A stretch of 64,000 nt of DNA from a plasmid, in sequence record CP113993.1, one strand, 5' to 3'. The notes under the pieces were generated by a model. The model was given only the letters and a program-made list of their open reading frames with translations. It was not told where the DNA came from and searched no databases. A program made the translations under genes and the position numbers. This document shows positions 9,918 through 20,271 of the stretch, one piece after another. Each line of letters begins with the position of its first letter. Position 1 is the stretch's first letter.

Positions 9918-12209
9918 TCAGTACATTCCGTCCCAGTCCGGACGGTTGGTTTTTTTATGATGAAACCCGTTTACAGGACGCCCTGTCGGGTGGTTATTGT
10001 CCTGTGGAAGCGTTAACAGGTTTATACCTGCTCTTTCTGCTCTCACTGATATCTGATTTTCCTCTTTTGTTTCAGGTAGTTCTGGTCTGTTCAGCGTGAT
10101 ATAGCGAATTCGTCGCTCTTCCCGTGTGGTCGTTTTAAGCGTATTCACCGCTGTTTCCCACAAGGCACTTTCACGTGCGTTGATATCTGTGTCGTACTCT
10201 TCCAGCATTGCCATAGCCGCCTGACGTCCTGCAATGCGTTGCTGGAATGTATCCACGATCGTGTGCGGCTCTGTGCGAATTTTTCGTCTTTTTCTGGAGG
10301 GTTTTGCAGTCAGGACGCCAATGATGGCACTGACATTTTCCGGTGACGGTATTCGACGTTGAGTGGTACGGGGAACAAGACGGCGGAGACGGTCCAGGCG
10401 TGGCGCATCCACGCTGATATACCTGTTTATAACAACGGGATCGCTGCTGCAGCTTTTCTCATCGTCAGGGATGAAGAATGATGCTGATGGTACGGTTTCT
10501 CCCCGGAAAATAGAAAAGAATTCGCCAGGATGAAGTTCAATCAACTCCTGAACATTTATCTTGCTTTCCATCAGGATGCTGATTTGTGGGCTGTCAATCC
10601 ATGATTCACCAAATATGCCGTCCTGACGCTGCAGGTTGTTCATTCTCGCCCTGGCTTCTTCACCGGCGGCGCTTTTCAGCGTTCTGGCCGTACTGCCCTC
10701 GCTGACAATCCTGCCGGCAAATTTTGTCCCCGTGTTCTGCATCAGTGTTGCAGTATTCGTGGCTGTTGTCTGTCCTTCTATACGTTCCTGGTCCTGTGCC
10801 ATCAAAATCAGAGCAAAATCCAGTGAACGCACCTGAGTGGCTTCCACAGCAATACGGTCCGTATAGTATGCCCCCACTTCATCAAGGAAACACAGATAAG
10901 GGAAACGCCCCTTATATTTTTTGACTTCCAGTGCATCGGAATCAGTTCCTTCGAGGCGGTAGCCCAAATCACGGGCGAGAATCATACTTTTCTGGGTGAT
11001 AAACATTCGTCCAAGAGCAGACGTTGTATGCGCTGATGTATCCAGAGCGGGGATCATTACCATCAGAATCCTGTCGCTGTGAATGCTGTCACGGATATCG
11101 ATATCACCGGAATCTTCAGCAAAAATATCCCCGAATGCTTCCGTGAATGTGCTGAAAGTTTCAGAAAACTGCCCGGAGAGATAAGCATGTTGTTTTCTGG
11201 GTTCTTCCGTCCAGGCTGATGGTGTCCTGACCAGCGACAGGTCGAAACCGGGAACGTCCTGAAGGTAGTTACGTAACGGTGCGATAGCTTCTTCCGGCCA
11301 CTGATCATCGAGGCCACGACAGTAAAGTTTGGCCATCCCTTCGAGAGTCATATGTTCACGGAGCATCTGCAGCGACATTGTTTTGCCTTCGCGCACACAC
11401 CAGAATTTAGTACCAAATACCAGTGCCTTATTCATGGCAATGGCCCGGGACTGCCACTCGCCCCCCTGGACGTTCTGGGGCAGCATTGACTGCATTGTCT
11501 CCGCTGTGAATGCCTCAGTGCTGTAACAGAAGGGATTCCAGGTATTTGACTGAGGACGCGTTTTTTCACCACTCAGAATGATTTCACTGCGGGATTTTCC
11601 TCCGTTCATGAAGTTAATGACTTCCACATCGTCTTCACGTCCAAAGCGTCTGGCCAGATACCAGATCGTTCTTGCCGTATCATTCTGTGCCTTGCCATCG
11701 ACAAGGGTGAATCCTCTTGCCCAGCAAAGTGGGTTAATCGCCCAGGCAAAGATGGTTTCCGTTTTACCGCCACCGGTGGTGGCGAAAAACATTATATGGC
11801 GGGTCAGATCGTCCATACTCAGCCATAACTCCCTGCCAATATCCCTGACGCGTTGATAACCAACATAGAATATGCCGCTGGCCGGTGATTCCAGAATGAC
11901 CTCATACTGGAACAGGGTTGGCCAGAAGCTGAAAAGACTTCTTTTAATCATTCTGTCCTGTGACGGGTCAGCACATTCCAGCGTCATGGGCATACGAAGA
12001 GGGCAGCGCCATCGCTGCAGACTAAATACCAGCATTGTTATCAGTGTGAACAACAGACATGCCGGTAATGCAAGTGGCCAGATAAAACTGGCCACAAGAC
12101 TTGCCACCAGGCAAAAGCCATAGATATTGAGACTCTGGAGTGCATTCCAGACAGGATTTCCCCAGGCTGTACGGTGTAAAAGCTCGGGGTTAACGCGATG
12201 TTCACTCAT
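9918..12209 (-). CDS. trbC: type IV coupling protein TrbC (DotL/IcmO-like), 763 aa
   Basis: N-terminal TM helices. Walker A FFATTGGGKTET. Convergent with nikB as in R64. Confidence 0.85.
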   Translation of the reverse strand: MSEHRVNPELLHRTAWGNPVWNALQSLNIYGFCLVASLVASFIWPLALPACLLFTLITMLVFSLQRWRCPLRMPMTLECADPSQDRMIKRSLFSFWPTLFQYEVILESPASGIFYVGYQRVRDIGRELWLSMDDLTRHIMFFATTGGGKTETIFAWAINPLCWARGFTLVDGKAQNDTARTIWYLARRFGREDDVEVINFMNGGKSRSEIILSGEKTRPQSNTWNPFCYSTEAFTAETMQSMLPQNVQGGEWQSRAIAMNKALVFGTKFWCVREGKTMSLQMLREHMTLEGMAKLYCRGLDDQWPEEAIAPLRNYLQDVPGFDLSLVRTPSAWTEEPRKQHAYLSGQFSETFSTFTEAFGDIFAEDSGDIDIRDSIHSDRILMVMIPALDTSAHTTSALGRMFITQKSMILARDLGYRLEGTDSDALEVKKYKGRFPYLCFLDEVGAYYTDRIAVEATQVRSLDFALILMAQDQERIEGQTTATNTATLMQNTGTKFAGRIVSEGSTARTLKSAAGEEARARMNNLQRQDGIFGESWIDSPQISILMESKINVQELIELHPGEFFSIFRGETVPSASFFIPDDEKSCSSDPVVINRYISVDAPRLDRLRRLVPRTTQRRIPSPENVSAIIGVLTAKPSRKRRKIRTEPHTIVDTFQQRIAGRQAAMAMLEEYDTDINARESALWETAVNTLKTTTREERRIRYITLNRPELPETKEENQISVRAERAGINLLTLPQDNNHPTGRPVNGFHHKKTNRPDWDGMY

Positions 12210-13272
12210 GGCCAGACTCGCTGTCGGTGGTTTTCAGGAATAAATTAAGCGTGCCAGTTTCCTGCAGAATTCCTGTAGGCAGATGCCAGCCGGTGTCGGA
12301 CAGCACCCATGGGGTACCGGCAAATCCGAACTTACGGAAGGCGACATTGTTTACATCAATTGCAGCTCTGGCCGCTTTCAGGCATGTTTCATCTGCAGGC
12401 GTTGTTTCTTCTGATGGCGTCATCATTCCGTTATCTGCGGAATACAGTCGGTGCCAGCCGGCAGCACGTTTCTGAGCATCTTTTTCACACAGCAGTGGTG
12501 CCACACGGTCGGTGGATTCCTCTCCACCAATAACTGAAACCGGGTAGATAACGACATTGAAGTCGCTGGCCAGGCGTTTTAAGGCCGGCTCCAGAAGTCT
12601 GCAGTTAGGACAGGCAGGATCGAGAAATGCGTACAGGGTTCGTTCATGACCGGATGACAGGTTGATGGTAAACATGCCCCGATCGGCGTTCCGCTTCAGA
12701 ACAGTAGCCAGATTATGTCGCGCAGCTGCGGCTTCCGGATTTTTGCTTGTGATTGTTTTCTCCGGTACCTGGACGTCTTTTTTCGGGGGAACCGGGAGTT
12801 GAATGCCTTCATTTAATGGCACAGTGTGATTCAGGTGAGGGGGAAGCAGTCGTGGCTCACCTGCTGTCTGTACTGCTTCAGGCGTTGTATCATCCCAGAA
12901 TACACGATCAACATAGCGGAACAGAGAGAAGCCAATCGTTGCCATTACGAACAGCACAACGCTGGCGATTATGCCACGGAACAAAGGTGTTCTGCTGAAG
13001 CGGCGTTCCATCAGGTATTCAAGACGCAGGCAGGAATCAATAGCTGTAAGTATCTGGTCAGCGTTATGCTCCTGTTTATCAATCAGGATGGTTTCTCTGT
13101 TACGGGTGCCCATGGCGTCAAAGGCTATATGAATCAGTTGATTATTTCGTGTTACCAGCCCTGACAGGGCATCCCGTGGAAGGACGGCAATAATTTCTGT
13201 CCTGCCATCCGGCCAGATTGCCTGCACGGAAATATGTTTTGCAATGCGTGTTGCAAAGTACTCGATTGTCAT
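12202..13272 (-). CDS. trbB: thioredoxin-fold thiol:disulfide interchange protein TrbB (DsbC-like)
   Basis: CxxC motif in LDPACPNCRLLEP. TM segment. Confidence 0.7.
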   Translation of the reverse strand: MTIEYFATRIAKHISVQAIWPDGRTEIIAVLPRDALSGLVTRNNQLIHIAFDAMGTRNRETILIDKQEHNADQILTAIDSCLRLEYLMERRFSRTPLFRGIIASVVLFVMATIGFSLFRYVDRVFWDDTTPEAVQTAGEPRLLPPHLNHTVPLNEGIQLPVPPKKDVQVPEKTITSKNPEAAAARHNLATVLKRNADRGMFTINLSSGHERTLYAFLDPACPNCRLLEPALKRLASDFNVVIYPVSVIGGEESTDRVAPLLCEKDAQKRAAGWHRLYSADNGMMTPSEETTPADETCLKAARAAIDVNNVAFRKFGFAGTPWVLSDTGWHLPTGILQETGTLNLFLKTTDSESGHE

Positions 13273-13290: not shown

Positions 13291-14499
13291 TCAGAATTCG
13301 TTGTCTGTAGCAGGTGTACGGGGCAGGATGTCGTCGGTGAGGGACCAGTTGGTCAGGATGCGGCGTTTCCGGTCGCGATCTGGTTGTGGTTCATCCCAGA
13401 TAAGACCGAGACTGAGCATATCCCGCCGTAAGCCTTCCACCGCTTCATCAACACAGGGTTCAGGGCAGGGAAGGCCAAAACGCATGGCTTCGGCCTCTGC
13501 ACGTGCAACGGCCACCACGCCAGCGCCTTCAATAAATCCTTTCGTGGTATTGGCGCGGTGTAATGCATAAAACAGCGTTCTGTCCACGCCTTTCAGCCAA
13601 ATCCAGTTGGGTGGCGTAAGCCGCAGGTCATGTGCATACAGCCAGACCAGCCCACTGCGGACGTAGCGATGTTGTTTCAGCCATTGCTGTGCTCCGTTGC
13701 TTTTAATCACTCTCTGGAAAGCTGATTTGGCCAGTGAATAAACAGGGGTACAGAATTTCCCGCTGTCCCGTTTGCTTTTAATTCTGCATGAGAGGTTCAG
13801 TGTATCCATGAGCTTTAATGCTGCCTTACGATCATCCAGGAAATACTGAAGGCCAAATATGGCAAAGAGCGCTTTTTCATGTGGTGCCATGTCTTTCCAG
13901 GACGTTAAAGGTTTACCCAACTGGGCCATGAAACATCGTCTTGCAGCTGCAACATCGAGCTGCATATTGGTGATGAGAGTATGCTGTTCGACAAATGCTT
14001 CCGGGGTGAGAGCAACCCGCCGTTCAGGTCGTTTGCCACCATGAAAGAGTTTTTCCGGATCACCATCTGCCAGTACAGGGGCGATAGCAGGGGACAACGA
14101 AGCAAAGATGTGTGGCAGTCGGGTAATATCTACTGGTCTGCGGGTGAAACGACTTTGTCCCGGATGTTGATACCACTCCCACAAACACCAGAGTGTCACA
14201 GGTAAGAGGTACATCCACAGAATACCTATGGTCTGCTCCATGACGTTAACCCACTGGCTATAGCTTATGTTGGCGGCGTTGTTACCGGTCATGGCAAGCA
14301 GGTTGTATCGTGGTGCTGCATAGTTATGAAATGGTCCCCAGTCAACCAGTCCCCATAAGGTATGAAGAATCAGGCAGCTGGCGTAAACCACTTCCGGCAA
14401 GAATAACCATATGACGAATAGCAGCAGGATAAGAAGGACACCAACAGCGCCCCATATCTGCATAGGATCTTCTGCGACAGGCTGTCGATTGTAAGACAT
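13291..14499 (-). CDS. trbA: inner-membrane transfer protein TrbA (DotM/IcmP-like position), 402 aa
   Basis: Several hydrophobic helices. Position follows trbB. Confidence 0.6.
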   Translation of the reverse strand: MSYNRQPVAEDPMQIWGAVGVLLILLLFVIWLFLPEVVYASCLILHTLWGLVDWGPFHNYAAPRYNLLAMTGNNAANISYSQWVNVMEQTIGILWMYLLPVTLWCLWEWYQHPGQSRFTRRPVDITRLPHIFASLSPAIAPVLADGDPEKLFHGGKRPERRVALTPEAFVEQHTLITNMQLDVAAARRCFMAQLGKPLTSWKDMAPHEKALFAIFGLQYFLDDRKAALKLMDTLNLSCRIKSKRDSGKFCTPVYSLAKSAFQRVIKSNGAQQWLKQHRYVRSGLVWLYAHDLRLTPPNWIWLKGVDRTLFYALHRANTTKGFIEGAGVVAVARAEAEAMRFGLPCPEPCVDEAVEGLRRDMLSLGLIWDEPQPDRDRKRRILTNWSLTDDILPRTPATDNEF

Positions 14500-14600
14500 G
14501 ACAAAGTCTCCATTTCTGGAATTTAAATCAAACGGAAAGGTTAAAATTTATTTTCAGGCGATAAGATCTAACCAAAGGAATTGGCCGTGCGATAAAAGGG

Positions 14601-14640
14601 TTGTTGCAAATACGAAAATTATTAGAATAGCTGCGGGCGC
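14601..14640. repeat. 40-bp imperfect direct repeat (left copy) flanking the AT-rich 302-aa gene
   Basis: TTGTTGCAAATACGAAAATTATTAGAATAGCTGCGGGCGC versus 15787..15826, 34 of 40 identical. Confidence 0.55.
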
Positions 14641-14760
14641 TTGAGGTTGTATGCCGAAGCGTTTTGTGGACGGTATACAGCAGAAACCCCTTGGAAATTT
14701 ATTATCAATCAACTAACCAAGGGATCTTCTGTAACTACTGTTCGCTATACCGAGTATTAG

Positions 14761-15669
14761 TTATGCTGTTTGTCTTGTTTCAATAATGTCTAAATATTTT
14801 TTATATGTTTCAGAAGTGGTAGTTTGTCCTTTGGCATTTGAAATTACATTATTCACAATAGTTCTTATCATGTCATCAATAAGTTCTAACAAATTTTCTG
14901 CCATGATTCCAGTAAACTCATTACATTTAATATATGTTATATTGTTATTTTCTAATAATTTGGCTGCCCCTATGCTTCCTTTGTTTGTGAATTTCATTCC
15001 ATTTATATCAATTATCTCACCAGTGTTGTTGGTTTCATTTAAATCACTTGAAATCAATGTTTTAAGTATTGAATCTTCAAGCATAAAACATTGATCTTTT
15101 GTGAAGCTAAGGAAAAGATTACTTTTGCATTTATCATCGCTAGTGTTTGATAAAGGGGCGTAACAAAAAGTCATTGAGTTGTGTTTTATATAGTTGTTTA
15201 AAGTGAAAACAATATCATATTTTCCTTCAATTATAGTCTCTATAGACTTATCAAATAAATCATGGCATTTTTTTAAATAAATTTCATTATCAATGCTGGT
15301 AGATTTGATAAGAATACCGATCTCATATTTTGAAAATAGTGCTGATTTTGCTTTCTGATAACCATCTTCACCGCACTTATTTTTAAACTTACTAAACCAT
15401 GGTCTTTGTGGGGGGGTGAGTGTCGTACCAATGATAGAATAGATGATATAAGGGAGATAGTATTCTGCTAGTGCTGCTGAATTATTTATGACAGAATCAA
15501 AAAAATATTCGCAGTCAGGTTCTACATAGTTTGTGTATCGAGGTCTGTTTAGTGATGTAACGAATTTTTCACGAAAAAATAGAAGCTTCTCTATCTGATG
15601 CTTTAAGGATATTTCATAGAGAGACTTTGTGGATACTTCTGCATCTTCATATTCAGGTAATAGTGACAT
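14761..15669 (-). CDS. AT-rich hypothetical protein (302 aa), probably horizontally acquired cargo
   Basis: Long ORF whose base composition is far below the backbone (very A/T-rich codons). Flanked by 40-bp direct repeats. No recognisable motif. Confidence 0.6.
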   Translation of the reverse strand: MSLLPEYEDAEVSTKSLYEISLKHQIEKLLFFREKFVTSLNRPRYTNYVEPDCEYFFDSVINNSAALAEYYLPYIIYSIIGTTLTPPQRPWFSKFKNKCGEDGYQKAKSALFSKYEIGILIKSTSIDNEIYLKKCHDLFDKSIETIIEGKYDIVFTLNNYIKHNSMTFCYAPLSNTSDDKCKSNLFLSFTKDQCFMLEDSILKTLISSDLNETNNTGEIIDINGMKFTNKGSIGAAKLLENNNITYIKCNEFTGIMAENLLELIDDMIRTIVNNVISNAKGQTTTSETYKKYLDIIETRQTA

Positions 15670-15786
15670 TTTTAAACTCCATAATATAAATACATTTGAT
15701 CGTTCAAAACGATACTTATAATTAAAGAGCAGTTAGTTCATTAGAACCGAGCTGTAATGTAGCACATCACAATGCTTCGGCAAAGA

Positions 15787-15826
15787 TTGTTGCAGATACG
15801 AAAGCCGTTAGAATAGCTGCGGGCGG
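15787..15826. repeat. 40-bp imperfect direct repeat (right copy)
   Basis: TTGTTGCAGATACGAAAGCCGTTAGAATAGCTGCGGGCGG. The GCCGAAGC and GCTTCGGC motifs beside the two copies are mutually inverted. Confidence 0.55.
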
Positions 15827-16300
15827 GGTAATTATCGAACTGAGTGCGCCATTCTTTTCAGGAGACGGCAAATTAGAGATGGTTGGTTCAGGTTCAGAGC
15901 ATGAGTTTCCTGGTGTGGCGGACATGCCGGGGTGGATTTTGCAGAGATAACAGATGTAAAAAAACCGACTGGTGAGGTCGGTTTTTTTACTGTTCCGCTA
16001 CAGAGTTGGTGACTCTGGACGGGAAAAGACAGTCTGTATCTAACATGATCAATTCTATGCTTTGTCCCGCACTATGTCAAAAATCCTGCTAATCAAGTAG
16101 TATACAAAACGTTAGCTCTACTGATTGTCTGAACTCGACAACTGACGGATTTGTTAAGTCCTGGCCGGGATAACAGGTGGTGCTGCTTCCGGTGCTCTGG
16201 TCGGAGTGAGGCAGTCTGTATCTAACAATAGAGACAACCGTAGTGACAGGCAGCCCATGAGTAAGCTGCGGTGTTTCGCTCCCTTATCAAGGGAAAACGG

Positions 16301-16396
16301 ATGATTAATCTGTTAATCATCGTTCTCAGGGCAGTAGTTGCCGTTGCAAACGCGCTGATTGCTGTTCTGGAACTGATCCGGGAACTTGTCGACTGA
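16301..16396 (+). CDS. 31-aa hydrophobic peptide MINLLIIVLRAVVAVANALIAVLELIRELVD, candidate DinQ/TisB-like type I toxin
   Basis: Small ORF with an upstream AGGGAAAA. Resembles E. coli DinQ (MIDKAIIVLGALIALLELIRFLLQLLN, quoted from memory). A hairpin terminator follows at 16421..16452. A tandem 16-bp repeat lies upstream. Confidence 0.45.
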   Translation: MINLLIIVLRAVVAVANALIAVLELIRELVD

Positions 16397-16420
16397 TAAG
16401 CCTGGAAACGTAACTAAGGG

Positions 16421-16452
16421 CAGGGAGTTACCGCTTCCTGCCCTTTAACAAA
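16421..16452. terminator. bidirectional intrinsic terminator hairpin (GGGCAGGGAG-loop-CTTCCTGCCC flanked by T/A runs)
   Basis: Inverted repeat seen between the convergent small ORFs. Confidence 0.5.
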
Positions 16453-16460
16453 AAGAGATC

Positions 16461-16637
16461 TCACGTTAAAAATTTGTACCCTTCTTTAACTTCCAGTGCC
16501 TGCTCCTTTGACTCAAACATCAGTCTTGTTTTCCCGGGAACGCCCCATGAAATGTATTCAACATCTATCCACCATTTTCCATATTCTTTATATGGCCCGG
16601 ATATTACTTTTTTGACAAAGGCGTCTACCAGATTCAT
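16461..16637 (-). CDS. hypothetical small protein (58 aa from the internal ATG; RBS AAGGAA)
   Basis: ORF 16461..16745. The MNLVDAF start is preceded by AAAAAGGAAAAAACA. Confidence 0.35.
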   Translation of the reverse strand: MNLVDAFVKKVISGPYKEYGKWWIDVEYISWGVPGKTRLMFESKEQALEVKEGYKFLT

Positions 16638-17028
16638 TGTTTTTTCCTTTTTATTTTGAAAATAATTAATGCCAGAGCACAGCGAAAATAATGAATGCGC
16701 TGGCTGTGATAATTGCGATTTTCTCCCATATGATATTTTTCTCATAGGGGTTTCTACGGAGATTATTTCTTCGCATTGAGATACCGGTATTCATGTTTTA
16801 TCTTGGACTTTTGTTTTGTTGTCTGTCTGGCAGGCTGTTCTGCGCCCGTTTGTGACAAGGTTAGCTTATGGGGTTAAATGGTCACGGACATCATGCGGAC
16901 GGTTCCCTGTCACATGCCATCTGGTTTTTTCATTCAAATTGAGAGATATTGCTAAGTTGAGTCGCTTGCGATAGTGGACTCCTGTTTGTAAGTGAGTGCC
17001 ATTGTTTATTTCATGAAGAGGATTGATT

Positions 17029-17238
17029 ATGAGCATGCCTCCTGCGATAGCTAATACTTTCTTGTTTGAAATGATGAAGAGTAAATCAAAAGACGTTACA
17101 CTTGCTGCGATCTATGCATTAGGTGAAGGCCGGTGTCAGGCGGAGAACATTACTCGTGAATTACATAGATTGAGTCAAAGTGATGATATGGAAATAAAAA
17201 TTGCTGCGATTAAAGCACTTGGTCGAATTTATCGGTAA
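17029..17238 (+). CDS. small HEAT-repeat-like protein (69 aa)
   Basis: AAIYALGEG and IKIAAIKALGRI resemble PBS-lyase/HEAT repeats. GAAGAGGA RBS before the ATG at 17029. Confidence 0.35.
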   Translation: MSMPPAIANTFLFEMMKSKSKDVTLAAIYALGEGRCQAENITRELHRLSQSDDMEIKIAAIKALGRIYR

Positions 17239-17309
17239 CGGCATAAGTTATCTGTTGTAATGAACAAAAGCCGGCTCATTTGAACCGGCTGTTATGGAGG
17301 GAGCTTATC

Positions 17310-17984
17310 TTAAAATACTTCGGCTACAGGCATGCCTGCAATCTGCTCCCACTCCTTACGCTTCTCCTGAATTAGGCGAGGAAAGTCGACAGGGTAATCA
17401 TATCCTCTTTCTGCCATTGCATGCATTGTATCCGCCATCATTTTGGGATGGATGCATCCTGACGGAATTGAGACCATTGGTATATTTATGTATTTTGTAT
17501 AAATCTCTAGTGTCTTGGCGTCGGTCACAGTGCGTGTGAAGTTGTCAATGTCAAAGCCGATAATATCCATTATATTTCCAGGGTAAGCACGAGCATACAG
17601 CATAGTGCCTTTTTTGGTATCCACGCCAAAATAGACGCCCTGAGTAAAAGACAGTCCCTCATATTCTTTGTCAGGTGAATAAAAACCGGTGTTTTTTATC
17701 TCCGCGACAATTTTTTTTATTTTGTCTTTTCTTGAGCTTGCTCGGGAATACATCAATATTGCAGGGGCAATTAGTAAAAACAGACAGACGCAAGTATAAA
17801 TATAATCTTCTTGCGTCACATATCTTGAAGATGTAATGGAGAGCACTCCGAAAAGAATAAAAATGGATAACACTGGTATGCTTATGAAATATATAAATCT
17901 AAGGGCGTAATATAATGTCCACCAAGCAGGATATCTATTGATTGTTTTTACCATTTGCATAATAAACCCTCCATAAACACTCAT
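17310..17984 (-). CDS. excA: entry-exclusion-like inner-membrane protein, 224 aa, at the excA position
   Basis: Two N-terminal TM helices. Sits between traY and the trb genes, where IncI1 excA lies. AT-rich and lineage-specific, as exclusion genes usually are. Confidence 0.5.
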
Positions 17985-18033: not shown

Positions 18034-20271
18034 TTATCCTTTTATTCCATCTTTATTATCATCCTTTGTGACATTTTTTAGTCTGTCCTCTCTAACTCCA
18101 GGGCTGTGTCTAATATTTCTATTAGAACCTGCAAAAATATCTTTTACTGATGAGGTGAGGTTGCCAAGAGTATTTACACCATCTCTACCACCCAAGAAAT
18201 TGATAACATGGTCAGGAAGATATGCTTGTAAAGCAAATATTGCAGCTACAGACGTTGTACACATACGGGCGTAAATTAGCAGGAACCCGGCAAGGCTGAA
18301 TATCCCTGTTAATGATTTTACCTGTACGTTAACTAGTGCTGCGCCAAACAGTGAGTTTAATATTGTGCCGACGGCAATGATGGCGACAGAGGCAAAAAAG
18401 AAACCGAATACCATGAGAGGTGGTCTTATCATGCTGTCAATTAAGTATATATATCCGTAAGCTGCTCGACTTCCTCTGTCCTCTGATGTTCCTAGATGTG
18501 TTGCTGCCCACAGAGGCCCGGCGGTGCATCCTATTAATACGCTTACTATCCAGTTCCCAATGCCTGTCATCCAGAAAATGAATGGTATAAATGGTAGGTA
18601 AATTGATAAGGAAAAACCCGCACAAAACAACAGGAACAACAAGAAATATATTGGGGGAGCTGCAGCATCCAGCAGAGCAACAAATCCTTTAGGTAATCCA
18701 GAGAACAAATTAACAGCCTTTCCGAAAATAGAGTTATCACCCATTGTCGCGAGAACTCTGACAGTTGTATATCCTGTCCAGAGAATTTCTGTTGTACCCA
18801 ATGTATAATCGCCGATGTTTTTCATCTTAATTAATGGGTTAACTTGGTTGCTGGTTGTTCCTGTTCCTGACCATTCAGTAGCAGCTTGGTTTGTCCATTT
18901 TAATATGGTTGGCGCTATACTTTTCATGACCACACTTTGTGGGTCTGTGCTATTAGCTGCATTACTTTCATCTTGAGTTGTTATCGTTCCTATCGTTGGA
19001 GTATATGTGGAGTTCTGTAATTGAGTCTTGTATGCCCCCATAACAGCACTAAATAAATCAGTATCGCCAACTTCCCCAAGTGATGACATTGAAGTTACAG
19101 CTGGAGCTCTGTCAGCCAGCTCTGCCAGACGCTGGTTAGCAGTGGCAAAGGTCTGATACCACGCGCCAAGCGTCACCCATCCATAGGTTGTGAGATAAGA
19201 CTTGAGAGCTTCTTTCCTGGATTGTTCTCCGTTATCAATAGGTAGCGATTTTTGTACAGCACGTTCATACTCGTCGGCTGCTCTCTGAATCCGTGTCTCG
19301 ATATCCGGCAATGTTCCGTTGCCAGAATTTCTTTTTTCCAGAAATGTTGTCACAAACTCACTGGCAGCGTTGTCCATGTCGCTAATCATATTATCCATGG
19401 CTGCACGTTGTGCTGAGATAACACCGCTGTATTCGTTTTTACTGAAGGGATTAAAGAATTTTCCAATCGTCGATTGATCTGTTGTTCCGTTTCCTTCTAC
19501 TGACAGGCTGGCTGAACCACAGATACCGCTGCCATTGGATACCGTGACAGTGTAATTACCACTGGCGGTTTTAGCTGATTCTGTCATCAGTGAAGTCGAG
19601 GATTTGACCGTCTGATTAAAATCATTTAGTCCTGCGTTAACCGCATACTTACACAGTTCCATTTCAAAAATGCCACGCGCTGCTGTTCGTGTGGATGCCT
19701 GAACTGGCTGTACAGTCATTGAATAACCATTTGCGATATTATCAGCGGCAAGTTGCACCATCACATTGGCGGACCCAACCCCCATTATCGATGCGCCCCA
19801 TAACATAATGAGCTGAGCGATACTCCAGCCATTTCCGGTTGGAACGATCATCAGAAAACCTGCAACGACACTCAGTGTGCCGACGATATCGCGTCCGGTG
19901 CTGAATACCTGTCCCTGATGCCCCGAACGCACAACATGACGGATACCAATGAACATAAACCAGACAACGGCAAGTACGGCGATGATACTGTTGAACGCCC
20001 CGAACATGCTTCCGATCAGAGTGGGGGCGCTGGTTGACAGTGGATTGGTGACTACATCACCGAATATCGTGACCAGCGCCTGGCGAGACAGATCGTCAGG
20101 ATTGGTTGCGGCAGACACAATATCCTGATAGGTCACTGAAGCCATTGCCGGCAGTGAGGATATAGCAAGGCCTGCACAGAGTGCGCGAAGTAAAATTTTC
20201 ACAGTAACTCCGGAATAGAATTGCGTATGGGCAAAGGCCACACAGGATTTAATTAAGGGGGATGGCGACAT
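18034..20271 (-). CDS. traY: T4BSS inner-membrane protein TraY (DotA-like), 745 aa
   Basis: Large polytopic membrane protein. Size and position as in R64. Confidence 0.8.
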   Translation of the reverse strand: MSPSPLIKSCVAFAHTQFYSGVTVKILLRALCAGLAISSLPAMASVTYQDIVSAATNPDDLSRQALVTIFGDVVTNPLSTSAPTLIGSMFGAFNSIIAVLAVVWFMFIGIRHVVRSGHQGQVFSTGRDIVGTLSVVAGFLMIVPTGNGWSIAQLIMLWGASIMGVGSANVMVQLAADNIANGYSMTVQPVQASTRTAARGIFEMELCKYAVNAGLNDFNQTVKSSTSLMTESAKTASGNYTVTVSNGSGICGSASLSVEGNGTTDQSTIGKFFNPFSKNEYSGVISAQRAAMDNMISDMDNAASEFVTTFLEKRNSGNGTLPDIETRIQRAADEYERAVQKSLPIDNGEQSRKEALKSYLTTYGWVTLGAWYQTFATANQRLAELADRAPAVTSMSSLGEVGDTDLFSAVMGAYKTQLQNSTYTPTIGTITTQDESNAANSTDPQSVVMKSIAPTILKWTNQAATEWSGTGTTSNQVNPLIKMKNIGDYTLGTTEILWTGYTTVRVLATMGDNSIFGKAVNLFSGLPKGFVALLDAAAPPIYFLLFLLFCAGFSLSIYLPFIPFIFWMTGIGNWIVSVLIGCTAGPLWAATHLGTSEDRGSRAAYGYIYLIDSMIRPPLMVFGFFFASVAIIAVGTILNSLFGAALVNVQVKSLTGIFSLAGFLLIYARMCTTSVAAIFALQAYLPDHVINFLGGRDGVNTLGNLTSSVKDIFAGSNRNIRHSPGVREDRLKNVTKDDNKDGIKG

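Follow-up and report, generated by a model that had tools for sequence, protein, structure and literature searches.

ORF302, a single-gene cargo between two copies of the pnd promoter at the trbA-excA junction of an IncI-type plasmid

A 64,000-nt stretch of plasmid record CP113993.1 (the window, from whose first letter coordinates are counted) carries between trbA and excA a 302-aa open reading frame (ORF302; 14761-15669) bracketed by two 40-bp direct repeats (14601-14640 and 15787-15826). Judged by their sequence, these repeats are two copies of the promoter of pnd, a hok/sok-type locus. A structural history in which this promoter was duplicated around the cargo and pndA was replaced, with a single origin for all carriers, is very likely. 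ORF302 itself belongs to a rare protein family that may serve in defence or in interference between mobile elements. For comparison, an ordinary IncI plasmid (NZ_OM142894, here L002) and a plasmid carrying finQ (L003) were compared with the window by blastn. A previous annotation made from the letters of the window alone (the sequence-only reading) had described the frame and the repeats; the open reading frame (ORF) listing confirmed the former on the minus strand, and the latter were likewise confirmed as identical at 34 of 40 positions.

Two copies of the pnd promoter around ORF302

The repeats can be extended without gaps to 44 nt (14596-14639 and 15782-15825), and self-BLAST recovered the pair with an E-value of 3e-8. 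Both copies contain TTGTTG-N16-TAGAAT, and both end at the start of the Rfam sok model RF01794, whose position 1 corresponds to L002 1837 in the intact locus. The hok mRNA begins 5' GGCGCUUGAGG..., and by analogy the pnd transcript would be expected to start at GGCGCTTGAGG after the repeat. The left copy (14592-14734, plus strand; blastn against L002 and L003), which includes the left 40-bp repeat, consists of the promoter and ~100 nt of truncated 5' leader. It shares ~94% identity with L002 1794-1934, also matches the second pnd copy of L003 (3215-3355), and is broken at 14734/14735, 26 bp from the ORF302 stop codon. Applied to 14635-14765, RF01794 scored 36.1 bits (gathering score 59), compared with 134 bits for the intact L002 locus. 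The right copy (15782-15825, plus strand; blastn), which includes the right 40-bp repeat, is an orphan promoter with 95.5% identity to L002 1798-1841 and 87% identity to the left copy of the window, and it ends ~4 nt past the inferred start of the pnd mRNA (~+4).

Comparison with L002 2487-2510 placed a deletion junction at 15823-15832, with the break at 15825/15826. Here pnd sequence ending in ...GCTGCGGGCG is joined to backbone sequence GGGTAATTATCGAACTG, where L002 reads TTTATGGGTAGTTATCGAACTG just past the start of an 83-aa ORF. The join shows GGG microhomology, and the equivalent of L002 1842-2489, with pndA and the 83-aa ORF, is missing. By blastn, the L002 interval 1935-2489 is absent from the window; no Hok/Gef-family toxin frame was found in the window downstream of the leader, nor any counterpart of L002 1992-2144. 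The junction with its GGG therefore points to a deletion that took the 83-aa ORF along with the body of the pnd transcript and pndA, which encodes the toxin. The pnd locus (pndCA/pndB) encodes post-segregational killing of the hok/sok type in IncI and IncB plasmids, and its promoter and part of its leader have homologues here. The toxin ORF, the 3' part and the greater part of the leader are absent, so that the locus survives here as a non-working remnant.

Both pnd copies could still be transcribed, as far as their sequence suggests. The orphan promoter at 15782-15825 faces 15826-15955 and then a bidirectional hairpin (15956-15990), and could give a chimeric RNA of ~150 nt divergent from ORF302, while the truncated left copy (14592-14734) faces the 3' end of ORF302 and might produce an antisense RNA. 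The 83-aa ORF (L002 2216-2467, minus strand) had no Pfam match and stands beside pnd in all inspected ordinary and finQ-type IncI plasmids.

Three blocks of the region aligned to L002 by blastn: 14300-14734 (L002 1501-1934, 94.5% identity), 15782-15825 (L002 1798-1841) and 15826-17500 (L002 2490-4165). Since 14735-15781 failed to align with L002 or L003, the foreign, lineage-specific segment is limited to these 1,047 bp (30.7% GC), which consist of a 26 bp 3' flank, ORF302 and a 112 bp 5' flank. The GC content of ORF302 is 30.1% (24.8% at third codon positions), against 50.3% for the entire window. The idea that 14.5-17.3 kb is a uniformly AT-rich foreign islet thus has to be given up, as most of it is backbone: on sequence grounds the foreign part is 14735-15781 only, and the stretch 15826-17309 (43% GC, 89-91% identity to ordinary IncI plasmids) is conserved IncI backbone and not cargo. 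This also holds for the type I toxin candidate, the HEAT mini-protein and the 58-aa ORF, which had been counted among the contents of the islet and are present in both L002 and L003. Flanks of about 50% GC had been proposed as well, which is correct for trbA on the left (51%) but not for the right side, where excA has 39% and traY 45%.

A second element of the same proposal was a short motif, GCCGAAGC, adjacent to each repeat in inverted orientation. The pair is indeed present, with GCCGAAGC at 14653-14660 (plus strand) and its reverse complement GCTTCGGC at 15774-15781, but it is weak evidence at a frequency compatible with chance (six copies of the 8-mer in the window, 2.3 expected). The left GCCGAAGC is part of the pnd leader, where other IncI plasmids read GCCGAAAGC, and finQ cassettes have no GCCGAAGC; a function as recombination signal was rejected on these grounds. 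A longer inverted match surrounds the motif, with 13 of 15 positions paired between 14652-14666 and 15768-15782 (TGCCGAAGCGTTTTG and CACAATGCTTCGGCA), and is statistically ordinary, being one of nine comparable pairs in 1.5 kb. Its placement is nonetheless noteworthy: one arm lies in the pnd leader and the other ends exactly at the start of the right promoter copy. The match might be a trace of template switching during junction formation.

A slot shared with finQ and its likely history

The sequence-only reading had seen in this position a hotspot for cargo, usually occupied by a small stability or exclusion module, which agrees with ordinary plasmids holding pndCA there (order in L002: trbA, Hok/Gef (pnd), 83-aa ORF, dqlB, 58-aa ORF, HEAT, excA). 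Alignment of IncI plasmids across the slot, as it had suggested, found the segment between the repeats present in some plasmids and absent in others. The same slot holds finQ in 547 plasmid records. Three examples are pEC545_1, pM105 and p45407_2: here finQ, oriented like ORF302, separates trbA from an intact pnd and is bracketed by a direct duplication of 172 bp (L003 1794-1964 and 3215-3385, 94.8% identical). The insertion of finQ with a duplication between trbA and pndA in IncI1 plasmids has been described as 'RD1' (PMC8004404), and the trbA-exc region has been reported as diverse, with pndCA lost from pRK1 (PMC3032704).

Both arrangements place a single low-GC cargo gene in the same slot and orientation, with direct copies of trbA-pnd intergenic, promoter and leader sequence on both sides, within the variable trbA-excA region. 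The right-hand copies of the two arrangements start no more than ~8 bp apart, and the left copies stop at different points of the leader (L002 1964 for finQ, 1934 for ORF302). They differ in that finQ plasmids keep an intact pnd and the full 172-bp duplication, whereas the ORF302 arrangement has 143 bp on the left and 44 bp on the right, with pndA and the 83-aa ORF deleted. Furthermore, the FinQ protein is unrelated to ORF302, and finQ is common, with 547 records, against 17 for the rare ORF302. Flanking sequences of the two cassettes were no more similar to each other than shuffled sequence and shared no motif beyond chance level. A side result concerns finQ itself: RefSeq gives FinQ 259 aa in several plasmids, whereas the open frame in L003 (2007-3098, minus strand) has 363 aa, in line with family members of 361-363 aa and with PMC8004404, which gives 361 aa. 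The start of finQ has thus probably been annotated too far downstream.

The foreign segment was found in 17 of 72,556 PLSDB plasmids and in 17 of the ~1,680 IncI-type plasmid records that match the window in part; over 14300-17500 the window is 100% identical to Salmonella plasmid pSZL30.1. Complete E. coli genomes carry the segment in 10 of 5,426 cases, each time on a plasmid, with no chromosomal case. Five other carriers have identical junctions, and these recur in every carrier inspected, which indicates a single ancestral event and later spread. These carriers include IncI-gamma/K1 and IncK2/Z replicon types with different excA alleles and with either HEAT or hha beside excA. Sixteen plasmids of E. 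coli, E. albertii and Salmonella have an intact ORF302 frame with 98.7-100% identity. The carriers of ORF302 include pRK1, a plasmid of E. coli W. In pSA20043041.1 (L018, 4421-5967) the segment is 99.6% identical with five indels, and ORF302 is annotated only as a 97-aa fragment; the indels may reflect either gene decay or homopolymer sequencing errors in the record.

We propose that the cargo would have arrived when two distinct alleles of pnd recombined, joining illegitimately within the leader at one end and by homology at the other; integration of a circle carrying the cargo and a pnd fragment would be an equivalent route. Either would double the promoter and leader around the cargo, the same kind of event that may have placed finQ, and a later deletion at the GGG microhomology would have removed the toxin part (pndA and the 83-aa ORF). 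The proposed intermediate, ORF302 together with an intact pnd, was not found among the carriers inspected, which counts against this history. A fresh target-site duplication does not fit the data, given 13% divergence between the repeat copies and a cargo that is 99-100% identical from plasmid to plasmid.

The repeats had been taken as the footprint of a site-specific insertion, with the segment between them as a mobile cassette. Direct repeats do stand on both sides of the cargo, and the unrelated finQ is bracketed by the same sequence with right copies within ~8 bp. Nevertheless, this explanation is highly improbable. What is repeated is the pnd promoter with its -35, -10 and +1, of which ordinary IncI plasmids have one copy; the duplicated lengths are unequal (172 bp for finQ, 143 and 44 bp for ORF302), the copies have diverged by 5-13%, the flanks of the two cargoes resemble shuffled sequence, and the segment was found nowhere outside this slot. 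In addition, the islet ORFs include no integrase, as had already been stated, and no transposase, and no recombinase gene is present in the region. If the repeats were ordinary regulatory sites, they should be conserved whatever the cargo. This is so for the promoter, which is conserved in IncI backbones, but the second copy occurs only with finQ or ORF302. Because the same sequence is duplicated around finQ, the repeats appear to mark recombination at pnd and not a dedicated attachment (att) site. An integron-like or other site-specific cassette was therefore rejected, with no recombinase ORF, unrelated finQ and ORF302 flanks and the pnd promoter as the common sequence. An insertion sequence or transposon was rejected as well: there is no transposase, no terminal inverted repeats were found at 14735 and 15781 beyond chance-level pairs, and the direct repeats (44-143 nt) are only 84-87% identical.

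The ORF302 family and its possible function

ORF302 encodes a soluble, acidic protein of 34.7 kDa (pI 5.2) without a transmembrane segment (maximum Kyte-Doolittle score 1.06), and its ATG start codon is preceded by GGAG. In agreement with the sequence-only reading, which could not assign the protein, no match was found in Pfam, NCBIfam, PADLOC or PHROG. Searches of ORF302 alone against Pfam, NCBIfam and PADLOC, and of all 20 aligned family members against Pfam, PADLOC and PHROGs, gave nothing usable, and its RefSeq accession was not mentioned in the literature searched. No known housekeeping or transfer family was matched. A role as IncI transfer or entry-exclusion gene was rejected, as ordinary IncI plasmids lack ORF302 and relatives of it are found at a distance from conjugation genes.

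Four clusters were retrieved from 5.8 billion proteins by a word-indexed search, and 26 representatives out of 1.84 billion by exhaustive HMMER search; a word-indexed search with the family profile added one further sequence. Seven residues are invariant in the alignment of 20 members (A3; K28, L67, Y70, N159, K162, H163 and N164), nine are nearly invariant (E8, Q25, E69, Y71, G81, C135, N158, G254 and S259), and two conserved motifs stand out, LxEYY (67-71) and LNNYIKHN (157-164). From these alignments, ORF302 represents a real, conserved and undescribed protein family. AlphaFold produced a useless model from four sequences (predicted local distance difference test, pLDDT, of 36); from the 20-sequence alignment the model reached a pLDDT of 88.8 and a predicted template modeling (TM) score of 0.87. 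It predicts that residues 12-163 form five helices at the N terminus, residues 168-256 a beta-rich domain, and residues 257-301 two helices at the C terminus. A PDB search with the family sequence profile gave no match, and the Foldseek check that had been recommended for such a model found nothing significant in PDB or BFVD. The top Foldseek matches, IpaD/SipD and profilin, were rejected at TM scores of no more than 0.3. Homology to FinQ, a member of the AcrVA2 family (PF26125), was also rejected: BLASTP found nothing, hhalign of A3 against the FinQ/AcrVA2 alignment (A4) gave a probability of 0.45%, and the motif P311-H312-x-R314-x-x-H317-W318, invariant in A4, has no counterpart in A3.

No neighboring gene is conserved across 11 loci, which suggests that the family gene needs no partner, or only host factors, to act. 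The relatives with 50% identity are on low-GC plasmid-like contigs, one of them adjoining a MobA/MobL relaxase. Another (L004, 4459-8915; contig with 36.6% GC) is located downstream of three genes, which encode a protein of the DotA/TraY family, an 81-aa product and a YafO-like toxin; as this neighborhood at the distal end of a mating pair formation type I (MPF_I) transfer region recurs, a low-GC element of this type is a possible source of the cargo. More distant relatives lie beside a resolvase in Cellvibrio, amid PDC-S37/Hhe, PDC-S06 and a patatin effector in Pseudomonas (L012), and next to an integrase, a restriction endonuclease-like (REase-like) protein and a DndC-like protein in Aliarcobacter (L015). 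Others are near Upx (L011), PD-T4-1 (L013) or a Schlafen/AlbA_2 protein (L008), in a prophage accessory region next to an HNH protein, at a locus with dCTP deaminase and AAA_21-type neighbors, and in two IMG/VR contigs. In a chromosomal serine-recombinase island, hha lies directly downstream of the relative (L028, 8193-8390). The relative in Rheinheimera pacifica (L009, 6001-12469) is flanked by tnsC on one side and tnsD/tnsE on the other within a Tn7-like element, an unusual position for cargo.

By raw count, PADLOC matches occurred within ~5 kb at five of nine genome loci; one further locus is that with the dCTP deaminase and AAA_21 neighbors, and others are mobile elements without recognizable defence genes. 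This distribution is as would be expected for a conflict gene on mobile elements. It resembles that of the single-gene candidates of PADLOC (PD-T4-x, PDC-Sxx and Upx), which likewise consist of one gene without a conserved partner in variable islands beside such systems; ORF302 relatives are similarly scattered, over Gammaproteobacteria and one Campylobacterota genome. In contrast to those candidates, ORF302 is missing from PADLOC-DB v2.0.0 and has no reported phenotype.

Taken together, a role of ORF302 in defence or inter-element interference has, on this sequence-derived evidence, a somewhat better than even chance of being correct. The protein would then be a stand-alone cytoplasmic member of a new, rare family on mobile elements that shields the plasmid-bearing cell from phages or interferes with rival plasmids. 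The genomic contexts of the relatives make the defence or conflict role raised by the sequence-only reading plausible, and the slot adds support, as its 547 finQ plasmids hold an AcrVA2-family conflict protein. The proposed architecture would place an invariant polar cluster (E69-Y70-Y71 and N158-N159-x-x-K162-H163-N164) in the N-terminal helical bundle. Speculatively, this bundle might be a HEPN-like effector that cleaves RNA or arrests growth, with the beta domain sensing the trigger. Within the defence or interference role, such a HEPN-like nuclease gated by the beta domain is a tentative suggestion. HEPN abortive-infection and toxin proteins (AbiD/AbiF, AbiV, the C-terminal part of AbiA, HepT) are similarly stand-alone AT-rich genes of plasmids and islands with ~200-350 aa, and the invariant N-x-x-K-H-N is reminiscent of their R-N-x-x-x-H. 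They differ from ORF302 in that no hidden Markov model (HMM) match and no arginine links the two, and in that ORF302 adds a beta-rich domain and a C-terminal helical hairpin. No HEPN-family profile was among the Pfam, NCBIfam or PADLOC matches of the 20 members at E<=1, the HEPN motif R-x(4-6)-H is replaced by N158-N159-Y-I-K162-H163 without a conserved arginine, and the likeness of the bundle to HEPN is, with the tools used, not separable from that to generic four-helix bundles.

Several points weigh against the favored role. The assignment draws on sequence, genomic contexts and a model. Association with defence islands holds, by raw count, for about one third to one half of the loci examined, and mobile elements also carry anti-defence genes and unrelated cargo. 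No PADLOC-DB v2.0.0 model matches ORF302 or its 19 relatives, and Foldseek found no match at E<1e-3 in PDB or BFVD. The arginine-less motif (N-x4-H) sits at the end of a short helix, and the promoter scan found no strong consensus sigma-70 site upstream of ORF302.

Other functions were considered against the same evidence. As an analogue of FinQ, ORF302 would be a fertility-inhibition or plasmid-competition factor that lowers the transfer or establishment of co-resident or incoming plasmids. It occupies the exact finQ slot in the same orientation and in a similarly minimal cassette (3' flank 26-42 bp, 5' flank 112-116 bp), FinQ, an AcrVA2-family protein, inhibits the transfer of F, and the closest (50%) relatives of ORF302 are on other plasmids, with one downstream of a DotA/TraY-family gene. 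Against this stand the lack of sequence or profile similarity to FinQ/AcrVA2 noted above and the distant relatives in chromosomal islands, a prophage and a Tn7-like element, which are found beside anti-phage genes with no conjugation system nearby; on balance we regard the analogy as rather unlikely. An anti-defence protein (anti-restriction or anti-CRISPR-like) that aids its mobile element is less likely still. A small acidic protein (pI 5.2) carried on mobile elements only, in a slot whose other occupant belongs to an anti-CRISPR family, would be compatible with this function. In IncI plasmids, though, early anti-defence genes cluster in the leading region, and ORF302 lies beside trbA on the nikB-proximal, opposite side (the adjacency of trbC and nikB was observed), so that a function in the established plasmid fits better than early anti-defence. 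Several relatives are, moreover, within arrays of defence genes and not with anti-defence genes.

It is also conceivable, with a low probability, that ORF302 is a silent or decaying passenger without current function. The gene is very AT-rich, and high AT content in enterobacteria often means silencing by H-NS; in addition, a consensus promoter was not found, the gene is rare (17 of 72,556 plasmids) and one carrier has five indels. A passenger of this kind is hard to reconcile with a frame that is intact and 98.7-100% identical in 16 plasmids across several hosts, replicon types and excA alleles, or with residue conservation and co-variation strong enough for a confident fold.

The surrounding backbone and the significance of the slot

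By sequence, the window represents an IncI-type transfer backbone of which the trbA-excA part has been remodeled. The ORF listing and the annotation of a 100%-identical record place trbB (12202-13272), trbA (13291-14499), excA (17310-17984) and traY (18034-20271) on the minus strand. To the right of the deletion junction, an AgrB-like antisense sRNA (15956-16043, minus strand) matched Rfam RF02891 with 57 bits (gathering score 40), as it does in L002, and has its own promoter (16080-16052) and terminator (15990-15956) by promoter and terminator scan. It is followed by dqlB, a DinQ-like type I toxin gene (16301-16396, plus strand) in the RefSeq annotation of the identical record. A 38-bp direct repeat (16008-16045 and 16191-16227, 82% identical), also present in L002 and L003, ties the AgrB-like gene to the dqlB upstream region. 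Transcribed from the minus strand, the first 38-bp copy would yield an RNA complementary to a leader of dqlB on the plus strand that includes the second, as far as the sequence allows prediction; such a trans-antisense layout is that of the chromosomal dinQ/agrB system. The annotated genes for the 58-aa hypothetical protein (16461-16637, minus strand) and the 69-aa HEAT-repeat mini-protein (17029-17238, plus strand) complete the interval.

Two further exchanges were seen in this interval. The HEAT gene beside excA is replaced by hha in other IncI plasmids (L017, L019, L026, L038), including the ORF302 carriers pRK1 and p3RM9976, and in L037 and L038 a different segment of ~0.9 kb replaces the AgrB/dqlB module between the 83-aa ORF and the 58-aa ORF. 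These module swaps indicate that the trbA-excA interval is a patchwork of several small, independently exchangeable modules.

Of these findings, the literature already covers the hotspot, the duplication around finQ and the absence of pndCA from pRK1. Three are new: that the repeats are copies of the pnd promoter and where the deletion junction lies; that ORF302 and finQ are arranged in parallel ways; and the definition of the ORF302 family, whose fold is confidently predicted but unmatched and which is associated with mobile elements and defence islands. Plasmids are known to carry single conflict genes as cargo, and the ORF302 family, itself not known before, is one of many orphan families of this kind. 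Calling it the most likely undescribed system in the window was thus an overstatement, since its function is inferred and the pndCA loss was on record.

As a tentative joint proposal, the pnd promoter and leader may be a recurrent capture point for unrelated single-gene conflict modules, sometimes at the cost of the addiction toxin, with ORF302 as founder of a new family of stand-alone immunity or interference proteins, in which a noncanonical, arginine-less HEPN-like active site (N-N-x-x-K-H-N) would be coupled to a beta-rich sensor in a fold absent from PDB and BFVD. As E. coli W, a safe laboratory strain that is easy to obtain, carries ORF302 on pRK1, the candidate can be tested directly and cheaply. 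Even if ORF302 were inactive, the repeats would still have to be reread as a duplicated promoter and not as an att site. If ORF302 is active, it would add a new protein family, probably with a new fold and catalytic motif, to the single-gene systems directed against phages or rival plasmids. IncI plasmids are major vehicles of extended-spectrum beta-lactamase (ESBL) and AmpC genes, and a trbA-pnd junction that repeatedly swaps conflict genes via the pnd promoter would bear on which of these plasmids can coexist.

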